This document shows positions 1 to 18,310 of a DNA stretch of 19,805 nt, one piece after another. The stretch covers positions 1 through 19,805 of IMG/VR virus record IMGVR_UViG_2731957841_000001; one strand, 5' to 3'. The position numbers and the translations under genes were made by a program. The notes below the pieces were generated by a model. It worked only from the letters and a program-made list of their open reading frames with translations, was not told where the DNA came from and made no database searches. Origin of the DNA: a virus. Lineage: Duplodnaviria > Heunggongvirae > Uroviricota > Caudoviricetes. Each line of letters starts with the position of its first letter. Position 1 is the stretch's first letter.

Positions 1-93
1 TTTATGTAAACGGGTTAATGAAAACAATAAGTTAGAGTAAAAACAATAAGTTGGGTTGGTGGTCAGTGGTGGTTATTACGGGGTAATGCCAAC

Positions 94-116
94 CGCTGCC
101 GCCACTTTGTCGCCAT
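94..116. repeat. Putative attL core: 23-bp direct repeat CGCTGCCGCCACTTTGTCGCCAT, matching 19717..19739 at 22/23
   Basis: Repeat read directly from the sequence; copies sit just outside the int-side cargo and immediately after the ogr stop, where P2-family att sites are expected. Confidence 0.55.
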
Positions 117-871
117 TAAGAAGGTGATGACTGGTCTTTGATAGCTAGAAGTCCCCATGAGAAAACTTCTTTGGCATCGCTTATTAAACCATCCTCTATA
201 AATTGCTGTGTCTCAGCCCATTCCATATCACTGACATAGTGTACTAGCGTATTTGTCTGGATTGGGATTTCTTCAAATTGCTCGATTCGACGTTTGAAAC
301 TACATTCAGGATCTGAACAACGGCATGTGCGTCTTATATCATCTACCCTACAGAGTAAAAGGGAGTAGGGGGTCTCAAGTGGTGCACAGTAGTCAACCCG
401 ATAGTTATGAGATCGTGTTGGCTGGATGTTATGAAGGGGATCTAAAAGCACAATATTAAAAATTTGGTTCTCATCCCAAAAGCCAACAACTCTACCAAGG
501 GCAGTAGATATCTGAAATTGTAGTAAGGGGTATTCTTCGTCATTTTCAAGGTAATCAGTGTCAATCCATGTCAACTGGCTACGTTGTACGGGTATATTTC
601 TTTGTTCCCAGTTTATTGAATGATAGCGCCATGCCTCTCTATCGGCCCCACTGGTAATAAAGCCTTTGACATCTTTTTGAGAAAGCTCAGATAATTTTCC
701 AATTAGTGAAACAAACCAGCCTGAATTGGTACGGTCTAACCCAAAATTATCAATTTGACGCCAATAACGAAAAGAAAATGCCCACTTTTTTTCGGGTGCA
801 GAGGGCGTTTTTGGGGTCTGTGCCGCTGTTGGTTGATTTGCCCCTAATGAAGGGCGGTAGGCGTTCACCAT
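116..871 (-). CDS. Hypothetical 251-aa protein, candidate toxin/effector partner of the upstream Panacea-domain protein
   Basis: Long ORF whose ATG (869..871) lies 5 nt after the stop of the upstream gene on the same strand; no strong SD, so translational coupling is plausible. Low-complexity P/A/T/Q-rich N-terminus and a C-x8-C-x-C-x4-C cluster. No family recognised. Confidence 0.55.
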   Translation of the reverse strand: MVNAYRPSLGANQPTAAQTPKTPSAPEKKWAFSFRYWRQIDNFGLDRTNSGWFVSLIGKLSELSQKDVKGFITSGADREAWRYHSINWEQRNIPVQRSQLTWIDTDYLENDEEYPLLQFQISTALGRVVGFWDENQIFNIVLLDPLHNIQPTRSHNYRVDYCAPLETPYSLLLCRVDDIRRTCRCSDPECSFKRRIEQFEEIPIQTNTLVHYVSDMEWAETQQFIEDGLISDAKEVFSWGLLAIKDQSSPS

Positions 872-876
872 GGCTA

Positions 877-1344
877 TTAATTTAATCGGCTACGATAAAA
901 GTCTCTTGTTATGTTGCGATCGATGACTACTTCACAACGTGCTGAAGGTCTGTAACCCTCACGAGCCTTAATCCATGGTTCTTCTTTATGAGTCATATCT
1001 TCAAGTTGTGCGCCAGAAAAAGCACCGTAGACTTCAAGAACGCCATCAATATGAGCTGCGGTTGCGGCTGGAATGGATGAAAGATCAAACCCAGGAGTGC
1101 GATCTGCAATCGTTATGTCCGAATACAGTGATTTTGTAGAAGAGAACCGGTTATAAATCGCACGGCTTACTGGGCCATGAATCCAAGCTTGAAACTCCTC
1201 ATCCACTAACTTTTTATCGAAAAAAGCTAGATACCAAGCATCTGCGTAATAAGCTAATTTTTGCAGCTTCAAATTAGACATAGTTTCACCTGAAGCTAAG
1301 ATTTTTGTGATGATGTAATCACATAATTGGTTAATATTTATCAT
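877..1344 (-). CDS. Panacea/DUF4065-like protein (SocA/PanA antitoxin-type)
   Basis: 155 aa; N-terminal region SNLKLQKLAYYADAWYLAFF...FQAWIHGPV matches, from memory, the conserved LKLQKLLYY..W core of DUF4065 proteins. GAGGGA RBS about 7 nt upstream of the ATG. Confidence 0.65.
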   Translation of the reverse strand: MININQLCDYIITKILASGETMSNLKLQKLAYYADAWYLAFFDKKLVDEEFQAWIHGPVSRAIYNRFSSTKSLYSDITIADRTPGFDLSSIPAATAAHIDGVLEVYGAFSGAQLEDMTHKEEPWIKAREGYRPSARCEVVIDRNITRDFYRSRLN

Positions 1345-1509
1345 TATTTATCCCTCTAGGCTTGGTGTCTAAGCAGCCAATCTTATTAAAGATATCGACC
1401 GTTAGAAATCTTTGAATACCAAGTTAACTTATAGTGGCATACATAGCTGAATAAATCGAGATTCAAACGTGCTAAAATGTGATGAATATGGATGAGCAGT
1501 GCTTTCATT

Positions 1510-2529
1510 TTACGTAGTTACCATAGTTGCTAATGGATTAAAACGTAGCGCTGTTTCTAGGTGGTCAGGAGCCAGATGAGCATAGCGCATGGTCATTTTT
1601 ATGTCGTGATGCCCAAGGATTTTCTGCAGAGCCAGGATGTTTCCGCCGGACATCATAAAGTGTGCTGCGAACGTATGACGCAGAACGTGTGTTAGCTGAC
1701 CGCGTGGAAGCACAATAGAAGTCTTATCCATTACAGATAAAAACTGGAAGTAGCAGTCAGTGAAGAAATTGAAACCGTCTAGGGCAATGATTTCCTCATA
1801 CAGCTCTTTGCTAATCGGAATGCTTCGGTTCTTTTTGCCTTTGGTCCTGACGAATGTGATCCGGTATTTCGTAACCTGAGAACGGGTTAGGTTCACAGCT
1901 TCGCGCCAGCGTGCTCCGGTGCTCAGACAGATTTTAACGACAAGAGCGAGCAGGGGACTTTGGCGGTTGCAGTCGTACAATAGCTCGGTAATTTGTTCAT
2001 GCGTCAGCCAGGCCATCTCCTTTTCTGCGATGGTGAATTTTCGCATGTTCTCCAGTGGGTTCGGATACGACCATTCGCCCAGGCGGGATAGTTCGCTAAA
2101 AACACTACTTAGATAGCTTTGCTCCAGGTTAATGGTGACCGGGCTTGCTCCTTTCTTCCATTTCTCGCTGAAGTAGATCTCGCCTGTCAGGCGTTTATCT
2201 CGATAGTGGGCAAACATTTTAGAGGTGAGATCAGTTGCAAGGGGATTGCCCAGAGCGTCAACCATCAGCAGCAATTTGTCATAGACATGCTGCCCAGCAG
2301 TCAGTGATTTACCATGTAGTTTGAACCATAGCTCAACCACGTCTTTTAGTGTTCGACGATCCACTGATTCACCTAGCCAGGGCTTTGCTTCGGTTTCTTC
2401 CATCGTGTGACGCTCAAAAGCCAGTGCTTCGCCTTTGGTGGCGAATTGTTTACGCACACGACGCCCACTACGTCCGGCGGGGTAACATTCGCAAAGCCAT
2501 TTTCCTGTGGTGAGTTTTCGTACAGCCAT
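1510..2529 (-). CDS. int: Tyrosine recombinase / phage integrase (P2/186 Int-like)
   Basis: C-terminal catalytic motifs (LSTGARWREA, HVLRHTFAAHFM, MTMRYAHL) and overall resemblance to P2 Int. Start moved to the internal ATG at 2529 (MAVRKLTTGKW...), which has a GGAGGG RBS; the upstream extension of the ORF is probably not translated. Confidence 0.9.
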   Translation of the reverse strand: MAVRKLTTGKWLCECYPAGRSGRRVRKQFATKGEALAFERHTMEETEAKPWLGESVDRRTLKDVVELWFKLHGKSLTAGQHVYDKLLLMVDALGNPLATDLTSKMFAHYRDKRLTGEIYFSEKWKKGASPVTINLEQSYLSSVFSELSRLGEWSYPNPLENMRKFTIAEKEMAWLTHEQITELLYDCNRQSPLLALVVKICLSTGARWREAVNLTRSQVTKYRITFVRTKGKKNRSIPISKELYEEIIALDGFNFFTDCYFQFLSVMDKTSIVLPRGQLTHVLRHTFAAHFMMSGGNILALQKILGHHDIKMTMRYAHLAPDHLETALRFNPLATMVTT

Positions 2530-9791: not shown

Positions 9792-10322
9792 TTAACCTTG
9801 TATAGTTATTTGAATATTTTCTTCATTGACACCAAAGTATAGGGCTAGCCCTGCTTTTGCCTCCTGAAGTGTTAACGGCTTAACTACATTTTCTTCTTCT
9901 TCTTCGTACTCATCACCCGCTTGATCGACAATCGAATTAGTCGGGGTTAATTTTGGAAGAGCTTTAAATTCCAACTTGTCAGCCTCAATGCCAATGTCTT
10001 TGAGGTTGCGATAAGAAACGGGATTCCGATTGCCATCCCATTGTCCTGGGATGTCAATTTCAGCATAAGAATTGATGTTTATGATCCAGCGTTTAGGGTT
10101 TTCTGGAGCCCTGCTTACTCCCGAGATTCGACCGATCATAAAAGCATGATGATGTTTTGCTTCTTGTGATCCCCAGTCCTTTCTCGAATTTTGTACACAA
10201 ACTAAATATTCGTGCTTAGCTGCATGGCTGGCGTCAAGTCTCCATGCTTGGCTTCCCCCTGTGTTCAAAATCTCTGTTAAACCACGAGCAGTAAGTACAG
10301 TAATACAGTTGGTAGTAGCCAT
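9792..10322 (-). CDS. Hypothetical 176-aa protein, opposite-strand orphan in the cargo interval
   Basis: Long AT-rich ORF with a His-rich patch (KHHHAF), a WDGNRN motif and an acidic linker (DEYEEEEEN). No family recognised. Confidence 0.55.
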   Translation of the reverse strand: MATTNCITVLTARGLTEILNTGGSQAWRLDASHAAKHEYLVCVQNSRKDWGSQEAKHHHAFMIGRISGVSRAPENPKRWIININSYAEIDIPGQWDGNRNPVSYRNLKDIGIEADKLEFKALPKLTPTNSIVDQAGDEYEEEEENVVKPLTLQEAKAGLALYFGVNEENIQITIQG

Positions 10323-10792: not shown

Positions 10793-10858
10793 AATAATGC
10801 AAATTATTGAGTCCCATTAGTTCAAAACTTAGGGATATCTTATGTGAAAGGAGGTTAT

Positions 10859-12544
10859 ATGTTAGATAAATTGATTTTTAATTCAGGAAGTAATCCAACA
10901 TCTAAATCTTCATTATCGGTTGACTTGACTCCATTGACAATTTTTGTGGGGCCGAATAATAGTGGTAAATCTAGAGCTTTAATCGATATAGAAAATCAAC
11001 TGACAACCCGAAATGCAGCGCAGGGAGAAGTAATAAAACAGATATTAATCAAACCACTTTCTGAGGATGAAGCAAAAAAGGAAATTGAATCTTTACAAGT
11101 TGAGCCAAACCAGGATGAAAAGCATGCGGGGCATGTTGTTTTATCTAGGCTAAACCTCCGTGGTGAAGGAATATCTAGGATTCTAGTGTATTTGGATGGA
11201 ATGTTAAGAGAATTCCAGCAACCCAATGAATTCAATCGGGAGCATCTATATCAATATTACTCGTTGCTGACTCTAAGGTTGGATGGTAGAAGTCGACTTT
11301 CCTTAACTTCAAGTCAAGGTTCATCCGATTTACAAGGAGAACCTACGAATAACCTTTCATTTCTTTTTAAAAATAATAAAGCAAGGATGGAGCTAAGAGA
11401 TATCGTTTTTGATGCTTTCGGGAAGTATCTTGTTATTGATCCAACAAATATAGGTTATCTTAGAATTCGTCTTTCTGAGCGCGCTCCTGAGACTGAACAA
11501 GAAGAAAGAGGTTGGGATGAAAAGTCAGTGCTTTTTCATTCAAAAGCGTCATTGATTACAGAGGCTAGCGATGGTGTTAATGCTTTTGTTGGGATGATGA
11601 TTTCGCTGATAGTTGGCTCACCAAAGGTGACTCTAATTGATGAGCCGGAAGCTTTTTTACATCCATCCTTATGCTCAAAGTTAGGAAAGGAAATATCTAG
11701 GATTAGTGCTCATAGTAATAAAAATGTGTTTATTTCAACGCATAGCGCTAATTTTTTAATGGGTTGTGTTCAAGGTAAAGTGCCATTGAATATAGTTAGG
11801 CTTACTTTTGATGGTAAATCTGGTACGTCTAGATTACTAACAAAGGAACAATTGACGCCGCTCATGAGAAATCCGTTATTAAGATCTATTGGTGTGCTAA
11901 ACGCATTGTTTTATAATTACGTTGTCGTTACTGAAGCGGATGCAGATAGGGCATTTTATCAAGAGATTAATGAGCGCTTATTGGCTGCTGGAGATCCTCG
12001 GGGTATTGAGGGATGCCTGTTTTTGAATGCTCAAAACAAACAAACTGTTTGGGATATAGTAAAACCCCTTCGTGAGCTAGGTATTCCCTGCGTTGGAGTG
12101 GTAGATATCGATATATTGAAGGAGGGAGGAGTTGTATGGAAAAAACCAATGCTTGGAGCTTTTTTTCCAGAAATGAAGCATGAAACTTTAGGTTTGGAAA
12201 GACAAAAGCTTTTTCAAGCCTTCAAAAATACGAATAAAAATATGAAGACAGATGGGGGCCTCTCCTTGTTATCGGGTTCAGATAAAACCGCCTGCTCTGA
12301 GTTTTTTAAATCCCTTTCAGATTATGGGGTTTTTGTCGTTCCAACGGGCGAGATCGAGTCTTGGTTGCAAAATCTTGAAATAGGTCGAGGAAAGAATACT
12401 TGGTTAACAAGTATTTTCGAGAAGATGGGGGATGATCCTAATGATGAATCATATGTGAAGCCATCTGAAGGTGATGTTTGGGATTTTATTGGGAATATAA
12501 AGCACTGGTTGGTTAACCCTGAAAGGAAGGGTATTCCCGAGTGA
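10859..12544 (+). CDS. OLD-family nuclease: N-terminal ABC-type ATPase plus C-terminal Toprim domain (P2 Old-like, class 1 arrangement)
   Basis: Start at ATG 10859 (AGGAGG RBS). Walker A (FVGPNNSGKS), signature-like EASDGVNAF, Walker B (VTLIDEPEAFLHP), H-loop (ISTHSA); C-terminal Toprim-like acidic motifs (VVVTEADADRAF, VGVVDIDIL). No adjacent helicase gene. Confidence 0.7.
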   Translation: MLDKLIFNSGSNPTSKSSLSVDLTPLTIFVGPNNSGKSRALIDIENQLTTRNAAQGEVIKQILIKPLSEDEAKKEIESLQVEPNQDEKHAGHVVLSRLNLRGEGISRILVYLDGMLREFQQPNEFNREHLYQYYSLLTLRLDGRSRLSLTSSQGSSDLQGEPTNNLSFLFKNNKARMELRDIVFDAFGKYLVIDPTNIGYLRIRLSERAPETEQEERGWDEKSVLFHSKASLITEASDGVNAFVGMMISLIVGSPKVTLIDEPEAFLHPSLCSKLGKEISRISAHSNKNVFISTHSANFLMGCVQGKVPLNIVRLTFDGKSGTSRLLTKEQLTPLMRNPLLRSIGVLNALFYNYVVVTEADADRAFYQEINERLLAAGDPRGIEGCLFLNAQNKQTVWDIVKPLRELGIPCVGVVDIDILKEGGVVWKKPMLGAFFPEMKHETLGLERQKLFQAFKNTNKNMKTDGGLSLLSGSDKTACSEFFKSLSDYGVFVVPTGEIESWLQNLEIGRGKNTWLTSIFEKMGDDPNDESYVKPSEGDVWDFIGNIKHWLVNPERKGIPE

Positions 12545-12580: not shown

Positions 12581-13609
12581 CTATGCAAGGTTATATTCAT
12601 TAAATTGCATTATTGGCTCCTTTATCCATTCATTTACTTCTTGAAGCCTTTTTTGCAATGGAATTAGCTCATTACGGACAAAGACCCTGCTGGCTTTCTC
12701 CACATCCCCAAATCCCCCGACATTATTTGGCATTATCCCCATCATTTGTGGCGGCACACGATGCGCAGCCATCATGTCATCCCGGCTCACGTTCTTGATA
12801 TTCAGAAACTCATCCTTCGCCGCGACTTCTGACAACGGGATGATCTGAAGCCCGTCCTTTTTGCCGTTAGGCGAGTACATAAACAGGTTGCGGAAGTTGC
12901 CAGGGCCTTTGGCGCTTTTCATCGCATTGCGGAGGTTGTTCACATCCTCCTGGTTCTGCGCGGCATCGGTCATGTACATGATGAAGCCTGCATGACTGCC
13001 GTTAATGTAATACTTCCGGCGGAACAGCGTGGCGGACTCGTTGAGCAGGGCTGACGGAATGGCAGAAAGATAACCTGGCAGGCCGTAGATCTCCTGGTTG
13101 ATGTCAGGTTCCATCAGATGAAAAATGCTGCCTTTCGTGAACTGATACGGCTGGGTTGTCATACCGTATTGCACAAACCAGTAGGTATCCAGGTCTAACC
13201 CGCGTCGGGTGTATTTTGCCAGCGCAGGCTCAAGGGCTATAACTTCACCGAATCGGTTCGTGCGTTTCTCCAGGTAGGCGTTACCAAATACCAGATAGTC
13301 CTGCACAAAACGCGAAAAAGCCTGTTGGCTGAGCAGCGGATGAGGGATATAGGTACTGGTCAGAATGTTGCACTTTACTGCAATCGGGGAACTGTGATGC
13401 ACGGCAGCCCGGAAGGTGCGCGCCAGTCCGTCAAAACTTACGGGTGGCTCATACCAGCGATCCGTCTGTACGCATTCCACATAGTCCAGCAGTTCGCGGC
13501 GGTCCAGTACAGGAATGGGATCACCAAAGCTGAAAGCTTCGGCTGAAGTTTGATTTTTATGCTGGCTCCGTTTCGTCGCAGCAGCGCGGTTTTTCTTACT
13601 CTTTCCCAT
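12581..13609 (-). CDS. Q: Portal protein (P2 gpQ-like)
   Basis: 342 aa from ATG 13609 (the track starts one codon earlier at TTG); directly downstream of the terminase gene with a TGATG stop/start overlap, as in the P2 PQ operon. Confidence 0.85.
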   Translation of the reverse strand: MGKSKKNRAAATKRSQHKNQTSAEAFSFGDPIPVLDRRELLDYVECVQTDRWYEPPVSFDGLARTFRAAVHHSSPIAVKCNILTSTYIPHPLLSQQAFSRFVQDYLVFGNAYLEKRTNRFGEVIALEPALAKYTRRGLDLDTYWFVQYGMTTQPYQFTKGSIFHLMEPDINQEIYGLPGYLSAIPSALLNESATLFRRKYYINGSHAGFIMYMTDAAQNQEDVNNLRNAMKSAKGPGNFRNLFMYSPNGKKDGLQIIPLSEVAAKDEFLNIKNVSRDDMMAAHRVPPQMMGIMPNNVGGFGDVEKASRVFVRNELIPLQKRLQEVNEWIKEPIMQFNEYNLA

Positions 13610-15375
13610 CAAAAAATCTCCACAATATTGCTGGTATTGGCGGACTCGCCCTGCAGCGGTTCGTTAAACAGTGCGTGCATTGTTGCCCAGGCCAGATCGG
13701 CGTGGCTGGCTTCTTCGCTGCGGCTAGCTTCATAGGTCGGGCGGTTGCCGCTGGCGGTGGTGGCGCGACGGATTGCCATGAATGACTGCGCAATGTCGGT
13801 GTGCCCGGCGTCAAACTCCAGACGGCGGTGGCTGATAATGTCGTAGGCCTTGAGTACCAGGGCGTTTTTAACGTTGGGGTTGTAGACAAACTCCCGGACG
13901 GCAGGAAAGAACGCTTTCACGTTCTCATAAACCCCGTGACCGACGCCTGTCGAGTCGATGCCGATATAGGTCACGTTGTACTGCTCGGTCAGTTTTTTGA
14001 TTGCATCAGCCTGGGCGCGGAAGTCCATCCCGCGCCACTGGTGACGCTCAAGAATGCGAAACTTACCGCCTGGCACGGCTGGCGGTGCCACCACCACGCA
14101 TCCGGCGCTGTCGCCATTCTGCGTACCTTTTGCCGGGTCATAACCGATCCACACCTCGCGCCAGCCAAACGGGCGCAGGGCCAGTGCATGAAAGTCGGTC
14201 CAGACTTCCCAACTGTCCACCATGCACGCCTGCAGCTCGCTGAGCGGAAACACGGATGCGAGATCGTCCACAAACTCGCACATCAGCAGGTTCTGGTATT
14301 CGTCCGGGCTGTACTCCATGCGTAGCTGGTCGAGGTCGAACAGGTTACAGCCGCCGCGCACCGCATCTTCCACGGTGACTATCTGGCGGTATTGCCCGTC
14401 TGCGCACAGCAGGCCGGGGGCCAGATTGCTGTGGGACAGGTCGATGTCCACCTTATCGGCTTTGTTGCGCCCACGGTTGAACAGCGCACCGGACCAGAAC
14501 GGATAAGCACTGTGTGTCAGACTGGATGGCGTGGAAAAATAGGTTTGTCGCCATTTTTTGTGAATAGCCATACCGGAAGCCACTTTGCGCAGCTCCTGGA
14601 ATTTCGGTATCCAGAAATATTCATCCAGATACAGGTTGCCGTGGTAACTCTGGGCCGTGCGGGCATTGGTGCCGAGGAAGTAAAGCGTGGCCCCGTTAGG
14701 AAGCACCATCGGATCGCCTTTCAGCTCCACCTCCACTTCTTTGGCAAAGTCGATGATGTACTGTTTAAAGACGTGGGCCTGAGCCTTGCTGGCAGAAAGG
14801 AAAATCTGGTTACGCCCGGTCAGCAGGGCGTCAATCAGGGCTTCACGGGCAAAGTAAAAGGTCGCGCCGATCTGGCGTGACTTCAGCAGGTTGCGGATGC
14901 GGTTGGTTTTTCCGGCTTCCCACCAGTGGCGCTGGTAGTTGAACATAGAGGAATGGAAGATTTCTTCCAGTTTCTCAATCTGTTCATCGGTGAAAACATT
15001 CTTTTCCGGCTGACGACGTGGGCCTTTGTTGCGGTTGGCAACGTTAGGGTTTAAGTCGGCTTCGTTGCCGCCATTGTTAAACTTGCCGATCCGCGCGTGG
15101 CGCTCAGACTGGCGTGCCAGCAGGTCAATTTCTTTGAAATCTTTCCCTTCTTTGTGCTCCTTCATAATGAGCTGGCAGTAGCGTGCGGCGGTGGTGAGCT
15201 GCATCTGATCCAGCGGCCCATAGTCACCCCACTTGTCGCGTTTTTTCCAGCTGTGAACGGTTGCAACTTTCTCGCCCAGCATTTCAGCAATGCGGGCGAC
15301 GCGGTATCCCTGAAAGTACAGCAGCATGGCCTGCCGACGGGGATCGAGATCTGCGGGTGTCAGTGTGGTGTTCAT
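13609..15375 (-). CDS. P: Terminase large (ATPase) subunit (P2 gpP-like)
   Basis: 588 aa; N-terminus (LDPRRQAMLLYFQGYRVARIAEMLG...HSWKKRDKW) and size match P2 gpP; followed by Q on the same strand. Confidence 0.85.
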   Translation of the reverse strand: MNTTLTPADLDPRRQAMLLYFQGYRVARIAEMLGEKVATVHSWKKRDKWGDYGPLDQMQLTTAARYCQLIMKEHKEGKDFKEIDLLARQSERHARIGKFNNGGNEADLNPNVANRNKGPRRQPEKNVFTDEQIEKLEEIFHSSMFNYQRHWWEAGKTNRIRNLLKSRQIGATFYFAREALIDALLTGRNQIFLSASKAQAHVFKQYIIDFAKEVEVELKGDPMVLPNGATLYFLGTNARTAQSYHGNLYLDEYFWIPKFQELRKVASGMAIHKKWRQTYFSTPSSLTHSAYPFWSGALFNRGRNKADKVDIDLSHSNLAPGLLCADGQYRQIVTVEDAVRGGCNLFDLDQLRMEYSPDEYQNLLMCEFVDDLASVFPLSELQACMVDSWEVWTDFHALALRPFGWREVWIGYDPAKGTQNGDSAGCVVVAPPAVPGGKFRILERHQWRGMDFRAQADAIKKLTEQYNVTYIGIDSTGVGHGVYENVKAFFPAVREFVYNPNVKNALVLKAYDIISHRRLEFDAGHTDIAQSFMAIRRATTASGNRPTYEASRSEEASHADLAWATMHALFNEPLQGESANTSNIVEIF

Positions 15376-15424
15376 GGCACAAACCTACAGCCTTGAATGA
15401 AGGCTTTCCCCGCCTGCGGTTTGT

Positions 15425-15943
15425 GTGGTTGAAGGACTTTCAGTTGCGGGGCCAACTGCAGCTTATGAATTTCATGCCCGAAGCGCCGACGGTCGGGTGG
15501 CGGATGCCAGTGCAACCAGCCCGGCACCTGCAGAGGTGGTGCTGACTGTCCTTAGCCGCGAAGGCGATGGAACTGCAGAAAAAGACCTGCTGGACGTGGT
15601 GGAAAAAGCTCTGAACAGTGAGAACGTCCGCCCGGTGGCTGACCGTCTTACGGTTCGCAGCGCAGAAATCATCCCGTATCGCGTGGAAGCCACCATTTTT
15701 CTCTATCCGGGACCGGAAGCAGAGCCGGTAATGGCAGCGGCAAAAGCCAGTCTGCAGAAGTACATTGCCAGCCAGACGAGGCTTGGTCGGGATATTCGCC
15801 GTAGCGCCATCTTTGCTGCTCTGCATGTTGAGGGTGTTCAACGTGTGGAACTGGCTTCTCCGCTGGCGGATGTGGTCCTGAACAAAACACAGGCGGCATC
15901 ATGTACGCAGTGGAGCGTAACCAACGGAGGAACGGATGAATAG
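15425..15943 (+). pseudogene. J: Baseplate protein J, C-terminal fragment only
   Basis: Translation resembles the C-terminal part of P2-type gpJ (RPVADRLTVRSAEIIPYRVEATIFLYPG...IFAALHVEGVQRVEL), and its stop overlaps the next start as at the P2 J/I junction. It begins about 50 bp after the P start codon, so O-N-M-L-lysis-R-S-V-W and the J N-terminus are absent. Confidence 0.6.
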
Positions 15944-17828
15944 TCTGCTGCCACCGGGTTCAACTTCACTGGAGCGCCGACTGGCGCAAACCTGTAGCGG
16001 GATTTCTGATTTGCAGGTGCCGCTGCGTGACTTGTGGAATCCGGCTATCCAGCGTGTGCTGGAGAAGGTGAACGCACTGCCGCAGGACAAGCGTCTGTCT
16101 GCCATGACCATGTTGTTTGGTAAAGAGTTTGGCGATGACGCGGCGAAACTGGCAAACAACCTGCCGGAACTACAGCGCCAGCTAAAACTGACAGCGGGCA
16201 ATGATGCGCTCGGTTCCATGCAGAAAGAATCCGACATCAACAAGGACTCACTTTCTGCTCAGTGGTTGCTGGTTAAAACCGGAGCGCAGAATACCTTCAG
16301 CAGCCTGGGCGAAACGCTGCGCCAGCCGCTGATGGATATTCTGTACACGGTGAAAAGCGTTACGGGAGCGTTGCGTCGCTGGGTGGAAGCTAACCCGGAA
16401 CTGACGGGCACACTGATGAAAGTAGCCGCTATTGTGGCTGCGGTTACCGTCGGCCTCGGCACCTTGGCTGTGGCGCTGGCTGCAGTGCTGGGGCCGCTGG
16501 CAGTCATCCGTCTGGGATTCTCTGTGCTGGGCATCAAAACGTTACCTTCCGTTACGGCAGCAGTAACACGAACCAGCAGCGCGTTGTCCTGGCTGGCTGG
16601 CGCACCACTGGCACTGCTGCGACACGGGCTTGCTTTATCGGGTAACGCAGCGGGTTTACTTACTGCGCCGTTGTCGTCTTTGCGCCGTACGGCATCACTG
16701 ACGGGAAATGTCCTGAAAACTGTTGCAGGTGCGCCGGTTGCACTTTTGCGGTCTGGATTATCCGGTTTACGTGCGGTTGCTGTGATGTTTATGAATCCTC
16801 TGGCGGTACTGCGCGGTGGACTGACCGCCGCAGGTACGGTGCAGCGAGTACTGGCATCTGGTCCACTGGCGATGCTGCGCGTTGCCCTGTATGCCATATC
16901 TGGTCTGTTAGGTGCTCTGCTCAGTCCGATAGGTCTAGTGGTTACTGCACTGGCAGGCGTGGCGCTGGTTGTCTGGAAATACTGGCAACCCATCACCGCA
17001 TTTCTCGGTGGCGTGGTGGAGGGATTCAAAGCGGCGGCAGGTCCCGTCAGTGCCGCATTCGAACCACTTAAGCCTGTGTTCCAGTGGATTGGCGACAAAG
17101 TGCAGGCGCTGTGGGGCTGGTTTACTGACCTGCTGACGCCCGTTAAGTCGACCTCTGCCGAACTGCAGAGTGCAGCGGCAATGGGGCGACGATTCGGGGA
17201 GGCTCTGGCGGAAGGGCTGAATATGGTCATGCATCCGCTGGACTCCCTGAAATCCGGCGTTTCCTGGTTGCTGGAGAAACTCGGCATTGTCAGTAAAGAG
17301 GCCGCAAAGGCAAAACTACCGGAAAGCGTGACGCGTCAGCAACCTGCGACGGTGAATGCAGACGGCAAAGTGATGATGCCATCGGGTGGTTTTCCATCAT
17401 GGGGATATGGCTTTGCGGGGATGTATGACAGCGGCGGGTATATCCCGCGCGGGCAGTTTGGCATCGTCGGTGAAAACGGGCCGGAAATTGTTAACGGCCC
17501 GGCAAATGTGACCAGCCGGAGAAATACAGCTGCACTGGCTGCCGTTGTTGCCGGAATGATGGGCGTTGCTGCCGCGCCAGCAGAGCTTCCACCGTTGCAC
17601 CCTTTGGCACTTCCCGCGAAAGGTGGAGAAGCAATTGTGAGTCGCGCAGCCACTGTGCCGCTCGTTCAACGGATTGAGGCACCGACGCAGATCATCATTC
17701 AGACGCAGCCAGGACAAAGTGCGCAGGATATTGCGCGGGAGGTGGCACGCCAGCTTGATGAACGTGAACGCAGGCTGAAGGCAAAAGCCAGGAGTAACTA
17801 CAGCGATCAGGGGGGATACGACGCATGA
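15936..17828 (+). CDS. T: Tail tape measure protein, truncated; the first ~37 codons look like the N-terminus of tail protein I (in-frame deletion fusion)
   Basis: N-terminus LLPPGSTSLERRLA...VPLRDLWNP resembles the gpI start, then switches to tape-measure-like sequence with degenerate PLAxLRxGL repeats and the C-terminal MYDSGGYIPRGQFGIVGENGPEIV motif. Stop overlaps the U start (ATGA). Confidence 0.65.
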   Translation: MNSLLPPGSTSLERRLAQTCSGISDLQVPLRDLWNPAIQRVLEKVNALPQDKRLSAMTMLFGKEFGDDAAKLANNLPELQRQLKLTAGNDALGSMQKESDINKDSLSAQWLLVKTGAQNTFSSLGETLRQPLMDILYTVKSVTGALRRWVEANPELTGTLMKVAAIVAAVTVGLGTLAVALAAVLGPLAVIRLGFSVLGIKTLPSVTAAVTRTSSALSWLAGAPLALLRHGLALSGNAAGLLTAPLSSLRRTASLTGNVLKTVAGAPVALLRSGLSGLRAVAVMFMNPLAVLRGGLTAAGTVQRVLASGPLAMLRVALYAISGLLGALLSPIGLVVTALAGVALVVWKYWQPITAFLGGVVEGFKAAAGPVSAAFEPLKPVFQWIGDKVQALWGWFTDLLTPVKSTSAELQSAAAMGRRFGEALAEGLNMVMHPLDSLKSGVSWLLEKLGIVSKEAAKAKLPESVTRQQPATVNADGKVMMPSGGFPSWGYGFAGMYDSGGYIPRGQFGIVGENGPEIVNGPANVTSRRNTAALAAVVAGMMGVAAAPAELPPLHPLALPAKGGEAIVSRAATVPLVQRIEAPTQIIIQTQPGQSAQDIAREVARQLDERERRLKAKARSNYSDQGGYDA

Positions 17829-18310
17829 TGATGGTGCTGGGATTGTACGTGTTTATGCTGCGCACCGTTCCGTATCAGGAACTGCAGTATCAACGCAGCT
17901 GGCGACATGCGGCAAACAGTCGGGTAAACCGACGTCCGTCCACGCAGTTTCTGGGACCGGAAAACGACATGCTGACGCTTTCCGGTGTTCTTATGCCGGA
18001 GATAACAGGCGGCAGGCTGTCGTTGCTGGCACTGGAGCAGATGGCAGAACAGGGGAAAGCATGGCCCCTGATTGAAGGCAGCGGCATGATTTACGGCATG
18101 TATGTGATTGAGGGACTGAATCAGACTAAAACGGAGTTTTTCCGCGACGGTATGCCGCGCCGGATTGAGTTCACCCTGTCGCTCAAACGAGTGGATGAAT
18201 CCCTGTCCGATATGTTCGGTGATCTCAGTGCGCAACTGAATAATCTGCAGGACACGGCAACGTCTGCCTTAAGCGATATCAGTAAAACGGTGGGAGGGCT
18301 GCTGTCGTGA
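17825..18310 (+). CDS. U: Tail protein U (P2 gpU-like)
   Basis: 161 aa; N-terminus MMMVLGLYVFMLRTVPYQELQYQRSW matches my recollection of P2 gpU; position between T and D. Confidence 0.8.
   Translation: MMMVLGLYVFMLRTVPYQELQYQRSWRHAANSRVNRRPSTQFLGPENDMLTLSGVLMPEITGGRLSLLALEQMAEQGKAWPLIEGSGMIYGMYVIEGLNQTKTEFFRDGMPRRIEFTLSLKRVDESLSDMFGDLSAQLNNLQDTATSALSDISKTVGGLLS

Follow-up and report, generated by a model that had tools for sequence, protein, structure and literature searches.

The DNA analyzed here is a window of 19,805 nucleotides (nt) from IMG/VR virus record IMGVR_UViG_2731957841_000001, which begins 30 nt past the end of the host gene rcdA and then runs into a 186/P2-like (Peduoviridae) prophage. 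Two adjacent minus-strand genes, panA and panT, lie between the left end of this prophage and its integrase gene int. They encode proteins of 155 and 251 amino acids (aa), and both open reading frames (ORFs) are present as described in an original prediction made from the sequence alone, which had proposed them as a toxin–antitoxin (TA) or abortive-infection module. Their features are as follows.

116 to 871, minus strand: panT, 251 aa, a long form of PanT cluster T1 (WP_001710104.1; 'hypothetical protein' in RefSeq)
128 to 259, minus strand: predicted ribbon-helix-helix (RHH) domain of PanT, residues 205-248 (strand TLVHYVS, helices 215-226 and 233-248)
302 to 388, minus strand: cysteine element of PanT, residues 162-190, with conservation from family column frequencies
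419 to 790, minus strand: predicted RelE/ParE-fold (BECR) core of PanT, residues 28-151, with beta-alpha-alpha-beta-beta-beta-beta order in the predicted structure
872 to 876, minus strand: intergenic spacer of 5 nt between the panA stop codon (877-879) and the panT ATG (869-871)
877 to 1344, minus strand: panA, 155 aa, putative antitoxin or sensor (Pfam PF13274, PHROG 1281, RefSeq)

The product of panA, whose sequence includes ...SNLKLQKLAYYADAWYL..., consists of a Panacea (DUF4065) domain alone, without an N-terminal helix-turn-helix (HTH). It matched Pfam PF13274 SocA_Panacea (E 2.1e-19; 70.9 bits, cutoff 25.7), PHROG 1281 (E 2e-37) and NCBIfam SocA_antitoxin, the last with 63 bits and hence far under the 190-bit equivalog cutoff, and RefSeq names the protein (WP_001710106.1) 'Panacea domain-containing protein'. 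The Panacea/DUF4065 call of the original prediction is thus borne out by Pfam, PHROG and, below equivalog level, NCBIfam. A Shine-Dalgarno sequence, AGAGGGA, lies 5' of panA at 1351-1357. Nothing GGAG-like precedes panT in the 5-nt spacer, in line with the tight spacing and the missing strong Shine-Dalgarno sequence of the second gene that had been remarked on before, and translational coupling of panT to panA is therefore implied.

The panT product had no match in Pfam, PADLOC or PHROGs, and searches of PDB sequences, whether queried by the protein itself or by the two profiles, returned nothing useful. Homologues are nevertheless numerous: a word-indexed search found at least 180, all unnamed, in Enterobacterales, Vibrio, methanotrophs, Desulfobacterota, Bacteroidota and other phyla, and when 1.84 billion cluster representatives were searched exhaustively with a profile, 746 matched at E <= 1e-3, 266 of them at E <= 1e-30. 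Nearly all homologues among the matches listed were 240-270 aa long. The protein is not a housekeeping or structural one, in keeping with the original prediction. An alignment of 56 long-form family sequences (A1) contained 19 invariant columns, every one within residues 32-151. The invariant residues include H84, W88, N110, Q118, G126, D144, H147, N148, Q150 and P151, and R127 is present in at least 90% of the sequences; the HN dipeptide singled out earlier corresponds to H147-N148 and is invariant across the 56 homologues. The C-terminal 100 residues, including the RHH region, are poorly conserved in the same alignment.

The cysteine element has the family consensus C162-x4-C167...C185-x4-C190 (86%, 82%, 89% and 95% conserved), which amounts to two C-x4-C knuckles. 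The window copy carries T167 in place of the second Cys as well as two extra, lineage-specific cysteines, C174 and C183, and three of the 56 aligned members lack C185 and C190, the distal half of the element. The cluster C-x8-C-x-C-x4-C of the original prediction is literally present (C174-x8-C183-x-C185-x4-C190), but only C185 and C190 are kept in the family. The element may be a zinc knuckle that binds metal. The sole PDB sequence match of the family profile (residues 140-200), to the CBP/p300 TAZ1 zinc finger, was not significant (E ~9); its alignment spans LLDPLHN and the Cys columns, and it probably mirrors no more than the spacing of His and Cys.

The AlphaFold2 (AF2) model of PanT had a mean pLDDT of 85.5, and secondary structure divides the protein into a disordered tail (residues 1-27), a core (~28-151), a linker with the cysteines (152-204) and the RHH domain (~205-248). 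Residues 1-20 were modeled with low confidence (pLDDT 57-61), in agreement with the disordered N-terminus proposed from the sequence. The predicted RelE/ParE core contains all invariant residues, and in structure comparisons RelE, HigB, YoeB and YafQ consistently outscored ParE. The clustering of invariant His, Asp, Asn, Gln and Arg in this core points to catalysis, as far as conservation can tell. Placed by strand order, R127 lies in the third strand (G-R-V-V-G) and D144, H147 and N148 follow the last strand; the R127 strand and the D144-x-x-H147-N148 motif presumably fall where RelE, YoeB and HigB keep their catalytic Arg and C-terminal His/Tyr. The predicted structure of the C-terminal 45 residues is a beta-alpha-alpha fold superimposable on known RHH domains, the best matches being the ParD/PrpA antitoxins, and we regard it as a putative dimerization and operator-binding module.

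At the level of sequence, none of the 56 long-form members matched RelE/ParE/HigB/YoeB/YafQ/BrnT, RHH, BrnA or other antitoxin families in Pfam at E <= 1, and hhalign of the PanT profile against single E. coli RelE, ParD and CopG sequences gave no signal. Both fold calls therefore rest on the predicted structures, for which the best Foldseek match of PanT in the PDB (HigB of S. pneumoniae, E 0.24) fell short of significance. The earlier statement that the 251-aa protein cannot be placed in any family holds for Pfam, PADLOC and PHROGs, but it is superseded by the predicted RelE/ParE fold and RHH domain and by a homologue listed in cluster T1 (see below).

To survey the locus across genomes we used one genome per species (GTDB) and confirmed each hit by tblastn, which yielded 63 loci from Pseudomonadota, Bacteroidota, Planctomycetota, Verrucomicrobiota, Cyanobacteria, a metagenome-assembled genome (MAG) of Bifidobacteriaceae and a few archaeal MAGs. 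An intact PanA homologue was encoded directly upstream of panT on the same strand in 58 of the 63 (phmmer E 1e-30 to 1e-67); panA is a pseudogene in a 59th locus, L039, and the other four have partner fragments only. Of 55 pairs, 49 had a panA-to-panT gap between -20 and +20 nt, and the genes most often overlapped by 1 or 4 nt. The pairwise-identity matrices of PanA and PanT were correlated with r = 0.60, the maximum of 200 permutations being 0.21. The 109 nearest flanking ORFs had no family in common, hence there is no conserved third gene; they are a housekeeping mix with a few transposases, integrases and AAA_21 ATPases and one type I restriction subunit. Together, the synteny, tight gaps, co-diversification and unrelated neighbors indicate a self-contained, translationally coupled and mobile two-gene unit. 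The PanT family was found on 2 of 72,556 plasmids.

Several single loci are worth recording. Thorsellia kenyensis (L051:4268-6776) carries two complete panA-panT pairs in tandem on the same strand. The pair of Vibrio palustris (L073:5532-10045), a T1 pair, lies ~840 nt upstream of DarT(+HD)-DarG(Macro) and near TrbL, and the proximity of DarT-DarG and TrbL suggests an accessory or defense region resembling an ICE (integrative and conjugative element). A second Vibrio copy adjoins a DUF6602 gene, a transposase and a ptaRNA1 toxin, and a Yersinia copy is found at the same ybjL-side prophage junction.

The V. palustris PanT homologue (WP_077311930.1, 242 aa; P0012 in our set) is 51% identical to the window PanT over 93% of the length. 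In the portion of Dataset S1 of Kurata et al. (2022; PMC8832971) that we drew on, this protein is listed as PanT cluster T1 together with the PanA WP_077311932.1 ('noNTD'), with gene order A|T, a gap of 4 and reciprocity 5|5. The T1 label is mentioned at least 217 times in the same portion, which includes Spiroplasma entries, and the T1 proteins covered there by experiments are those of E. coli MOD1 (WP_077635758.1) and Salmonella phage Emek (YP_006560566.1), with 'mRNase' as the predicted activity. On the computational criteria for PanAT, PanA of the window exceeds the Panacea gathering threshold (PF13274, 70.9 versus 25.7 bits), and partnership is reciprocal in that 58 of 63 partner relatives have an intact PanA upstream. 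The window pair thus qualifies as PanAT on every computational criterion and, by close homology, is assigned to T1, with its PanT as a long-form member. The gene family has been on record since 2022 and is functionally uncharacterized; the window pair is a further T1 member.

Short T1 proteins are about 140-160 aa long. Emek gp16 (139-161 aa) is encoded just downstream of a DUF4065 gene, which it overlaps. It gave no tblastn match to the window PanT, and hhalign against the single gp16 sequence was uninformative. A 48-sequence profile of the Emek gp16 family (A3) was colinear with the core of the long-form alignment over 107 columns, a weak match (hhalign E 0.0076). The models of long and short T1 proteins are alike in having a disordered tail followed by beta-alpha-alpha-beta-beta-beta-beta, and both forms repeatedly gave sub-threshold matches (E 0.005-0.07) to NCBIfam NF046006 MAG6450_fam. 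This Mycoplasma-named family of 103 positions may be the sole curated profile that touches the T1 superfamily. We did not find the T1 extension (Cys4 and RHH) or a RelE-fold assignment described in the accessible text and data of PMC8832971, and the family accessions are absent from the supplements of the NetFlax paper (PMC10440598).

The pair occupies a defined position in the prophage, for which the following features are relevant.

1 to 115, no strand assigned: attL-proximal prophage end, common to related prophages
76 to 115, minus strand: orphaned ancestral int end, the last 13 codons and stop (GDKVAAAVGITP*), from alignment with relatives
116 to 1525, minus strand: cargo cassette of 1,410 bp comprising panA, panT, the 165-nt leader and the new last 4 int codons
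1345 to 1509, minus strand: int-panA leader, 165 nt
1510 to 2529, minus strand: tyrosine integrase gene int (Pfam Int_N and Phage_integrase; RefSeq coordinates)

A prophage of this int family is present at the rcdA site in ~1,125 of the 5,426 complete E. coli genomes that we surveyed (~20%). In the commonest form, represented by L067, the slot is empty and int ends 76 nt into sequence matching the window. Homology of the window to this form ends at 115 and starts again at 1526, the cassette replacing 9 bp and rewriting the C-terminus of int, which now reads ...NPLATMVTT* and before read ...NPLATLPSGDKVAAAVGITP (also shown as ...ATLPSGDKVAAAVGITP). The same breakpoints (115/116 and 1525/1526) enclose other cargo in E. 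coli HS (L068) and DL21 (L069), namely hypothetical genes for 89 and 110 aa, one further strain has a P-loop NTPase in this int 3' slot, and in most related E. coli prophages the slot is empty, with 9 bp between the breakpoints. Shared breakpoints with differing cargo define an exchangeable cargo slot. The PanAT cassette itself was found in 24 of the 5,426 genomes, with at least 99.5% identity, in single copy, on the chromosome and always next to int. Its GC content is 39-46%, against 48-50% in int. We did not find this slot described by term searches of Rousset et al. (2022; PMC9122126) and Vassallo et al. (2022).

Window positions 1-115 are 89.6% identical to the empty-slot prophage L067, 99% identical to L068 and L069, and 97-99% identical to Klebsiella Peduoviridae phages; the annotated attL of Klebsiella phage 4LV2017 adjoins the sequence matching 1-115. 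The original prediction had described AT-rich, mobile cargo just inside attL. Its location agrees with the rcdA stop codon 30 nt before the window start and with the 4LV2017 attL, its composition with the GC values above, and its mobility with a slot that related prophages share, filled or empty. Just inside the prophage end, the direct repeat AAAACAATAAGTT occurs at 21-33 and 40-52, with starts 19 nt apart, and the two copies are possibly arm-type binding sites of Int.

We judge it roughly 55% probable that panA and panT form a PanAT-type module belonging to PanT cluster T1, carried as exchangeable prophage cargo, whose effector is a RelE-like RNase held in check by PanA. Standalone Panacea proteins bind and directly neutralize diverse PanTs (PMC8832971, PMC10440598), and PanA would likewise bind PanT and keep it inactive, as in other PanA:PanT pairs. 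PanT would dimerize via its RHH domain, which may also confer operator binding and autoregulation. According to Ernits et al., autoregulation of panAT operons is probably not a role of Panacea itself (PMC8832971, PMC10440598), which is proposed to act primarily as a sensor; because the PanA of the window also has no DNA-binding domain, the RHH domain of PanT is a natural candidate for dimerization and operator binding. Were PanA inactivated or titrated, whether through a phage cue or because the element is lost, the RelE-like core would be free to act as an RNase and arrest translation, and the outcome could be abortive infection or prophage addiction. Expression of the cassette in the lysogen would probably come from read-through of the cI-int transcript.

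A number of observations weigh against this interpretation. The catalytic set of RelE is K52/K54/R61/R81/Y87, and these residues do not appear to be conserved as such in PanT. Neither PanA nor PanT matched any PADLOC v2 defense model at E <= 1, none of 50,697 phage records contained the PanT family by tblastn, and IMG/VR contained it on 5 contigs only. In Methylobacterium sp. 10 (L039:4519-5732) panA is interrupted by in-frame TGA (4660) and TAG (4834) codons while panT is intact with all invariant residues, and a dead panA beside an intact panT argues against constitutive lethality, although panT might be silenced there once it is no longer translationally coupled. A scan for sigma-70 promoters and terminators found no convincing promoter in the int-panA leader. 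The same scan found no minus-strand terminator between int and panA, so that the lysogenic cI-int transcript may read through into the cassette, a plausible source of its expression. In an operator search upstream of panA, the best repeat, a 9-nt inverted repeat at 1388-1413, was equalled by 40% of shuffled sequences; across 58 loci, 21% have inverted repeats upstream of panA that exceed z = 2, some of them probably terminators of upstream genes. The MOD1 and Emek T1 proteins are reported as 'not toxic' when expressed in E. coli (PMC8832971). The published non-toxicity covers only distant, short-form relatives of the window PanT.

A more speculative version of the model, to which we give low odds, is the following: the long T1 effector would be its own RHH autoregulator, perhaps with a zinc knuckle, PanA would be purely a trigger sensor and clamp, and the effector would fire only on a phage cue. 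If this were true, a latent effector would explain the 'not toxic' score of the largest PanT cluster and define a widespread RelE-fold defense family. Such a module would also invert the usual division of labor in type II systems, with the 'toxin' as transcriptional autoregulator.

The same data allow readings in which PanT is not a toxin restrained by PanA. PanT may be a transcription factor of RHH type whose RelE-like domain is non-catalytic and binds a ligand or partner; together with PanA it would form a regulatory pair that does not kill the cell, acting for instance on prophage or host genes or in superinfection exclusion. The tested T1 relatives are not toxic, L039 tolerates the loss of panA, a DNA-binding domain is predicted in PanT, canonical RelE catalytic residues appear to be absent, and there was no PADLOC match; yet ten invariant residues lie in the core while the RHH is poorly conserved, a pattern that fits an enzyme active site better, and the pair moves through unrelated contexts without conserved target genes, as is typical of selfish or defense modules. 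We consider this regulatory role unlikely. Next in rank, and doubtful as well, is a single-chain TA system in which a RelE-fold toxin is fused to an RHH antitoxin-like module, like BrnT-BrnA; the Cys4/RHH part would restrain the core in cis and repress the operon, leaving PanA as the trigger sensor. An RHH domain is a hallmark of type II antitoxins and that of PanT best matches ParD/PrpA, fused BECR-toxin and RHH proteins exist (PMC11980606), and the sensor proposal of Ernits et al., the lack of toxicity of T1 proteins on over-expression and the persistence of panT beside a dead panA in L039 would all be accounted for. However, the short T1 proteins without the extension are also non-toxic and also paired with PanA, no sequence similarity to BrnA or another antitoxin family was found, and canonical RHH antitoxins neutralize via a separate tail, of which none is evident after residue 248.

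Two further explanations are far less probable. Poisoning of DNA gyrase by a ParE-type RelE/ParE core, without RNA cleavage, is less favored and very improbable, given that RelE, HigB, YoeB and YafQ score consistently above ParE. Where the last strand of PanT ends, invariant His, Asp, Asn, Gln and Arg residues, which we take to resemble the RNase active sites of RelE, YoeB and HigB, also argue against it, as does the label mRNase that Kurata et al. give to the tested T1 proteins. That the two genes are adjacent by chance, or are decaying junk at a prophage end, might be suggested by the apparently defective state of the window prophage and the rarity of the cassette, but is effectively refuted by the synteny seen across many phyla, at 59 of 63 loci; PanA and PanT moreover co-diversify (r = 0.60), 24 E. 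coli genomes carry both ORFs intact with an identity of at least 99.5%, and 19 columns are invariant family-wide. A PanAT-type module with a RelE-like effector remains our preferred interpretation.

The remainder of the prophage includes int, cI, cII, fil, Dam methylase and replication endonuclease A genes, among others. Between replication gene A and portal gene Q, in the classical P2 hotspot, lies a plus-strand gene (10844-12544) for an OLD-family protein of 566 aa with ATPase and TOPRIM domains (PADLOC Old, E 1e-20; Pfam AAA_15, AAA_21 and OLD-like_TOPRIM); beside it, a minus-strand ORF of 176 aa (9792-10322) had no match in our scans. The portal (12581-13612) and terminase (13609-15375) genes are followed, in window ~15400-17830, by a short scaffold-like ORF and a 630-aa ORF whose sole match is an N-terminal Tail_P2_I. 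Most capsid and tail genes therefore seem to be deleted, and the prophage looks defective. Strain PE15 has an identical cassette, but the structural genes that are truncated there differ. Scanning the region with Rfam and for tRNAs gave no hits, and hence no sign of an RNA antitoxin or of a tRNA att site.

In the material available to us, T1 is the most represented predicted PanT cluster (at least 217 label mentions) and has no member with demonstrated activity on record. With a tractable E. coli host and prophage and defined mutational targets (R127, D144, H147, N148 and the RHH domain), the window pair makes a convenient T1 test case. It bears on whether T1 proteins are latent RelE-type RNases, whether an effector RHH replaces the DNA-binding domain of noNTD PanAs, and whether Panacea acts as a sensor; should the pair prove inert or regulatory, that would put right the wholesale labeling of PanA neighbors as 'toxin'. 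The int 3' slot offers a simple marker for mining prophage cargo in ~20% of E. coli genomes.

Among known systems, the published T1 PanAT pairs (PMC8832971) share with the window pair a standalone noNTD Panacea gene in first position, a hypothetical protein encoded within a few nt and, in V. palustris, a PanT of the same length and architecture; the members tested are, in contrast, short non-toxic forms tied to the window PanT at profile level only. The mRNA interferases RelE, HigB, YoeB and YafQ resemble PanT in predicted fold, in strand and helix order, in belonging to a two-gene module and, probably, in having a conserved Arg in the third strand and Asp/His just after the last one. PanT differs from them in lying outside all Pfam BECR families, in an insertion of ~35 residues with the invariant H84, W88 and N110, in its own predicted C-terminal RHH domain, and in being paired with Panacea in place of an RHH, Phd or HTH antitoxin. 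The order of an N-terminal RelE-superfamily domain followed by a DNA-binding domain in one chain recurs in the BrnT-BrnA and RelE-YiaG fusions (Gerdes, 2025; PMC11980606), and in BrnT-BrnA fusions the DNA-binding domain is usually RHH. That survey of multidomain RelE/ParE proteins covers 13 Pfam families and does not mention Panacea, and the combination of RelE fold, Cys4 and RHH with a PanA partner was not found described in the parts of the literature that our searches reached. The window pair is not SocAB, the type VI TA system of Caulobacter: the antitoxins share the Panacea/SocA domain, but the window PanA scores 63 bits against the equivalog cutoff of 190 and its partner is unrelated to SocB. 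Finally, the P2 hotspots old/tin and Z/fun (Rousset et al., PMC9122126; Vassallo et al., 2022) likewise hold exchangeable cargo at a fixed position in P2-family prophages, and the OLD-family gene of the window prophage lies in one such site, the classical A-Q hotspot, whereas the slot that houses panA and panT lies at the 3' end of int, next to attL.

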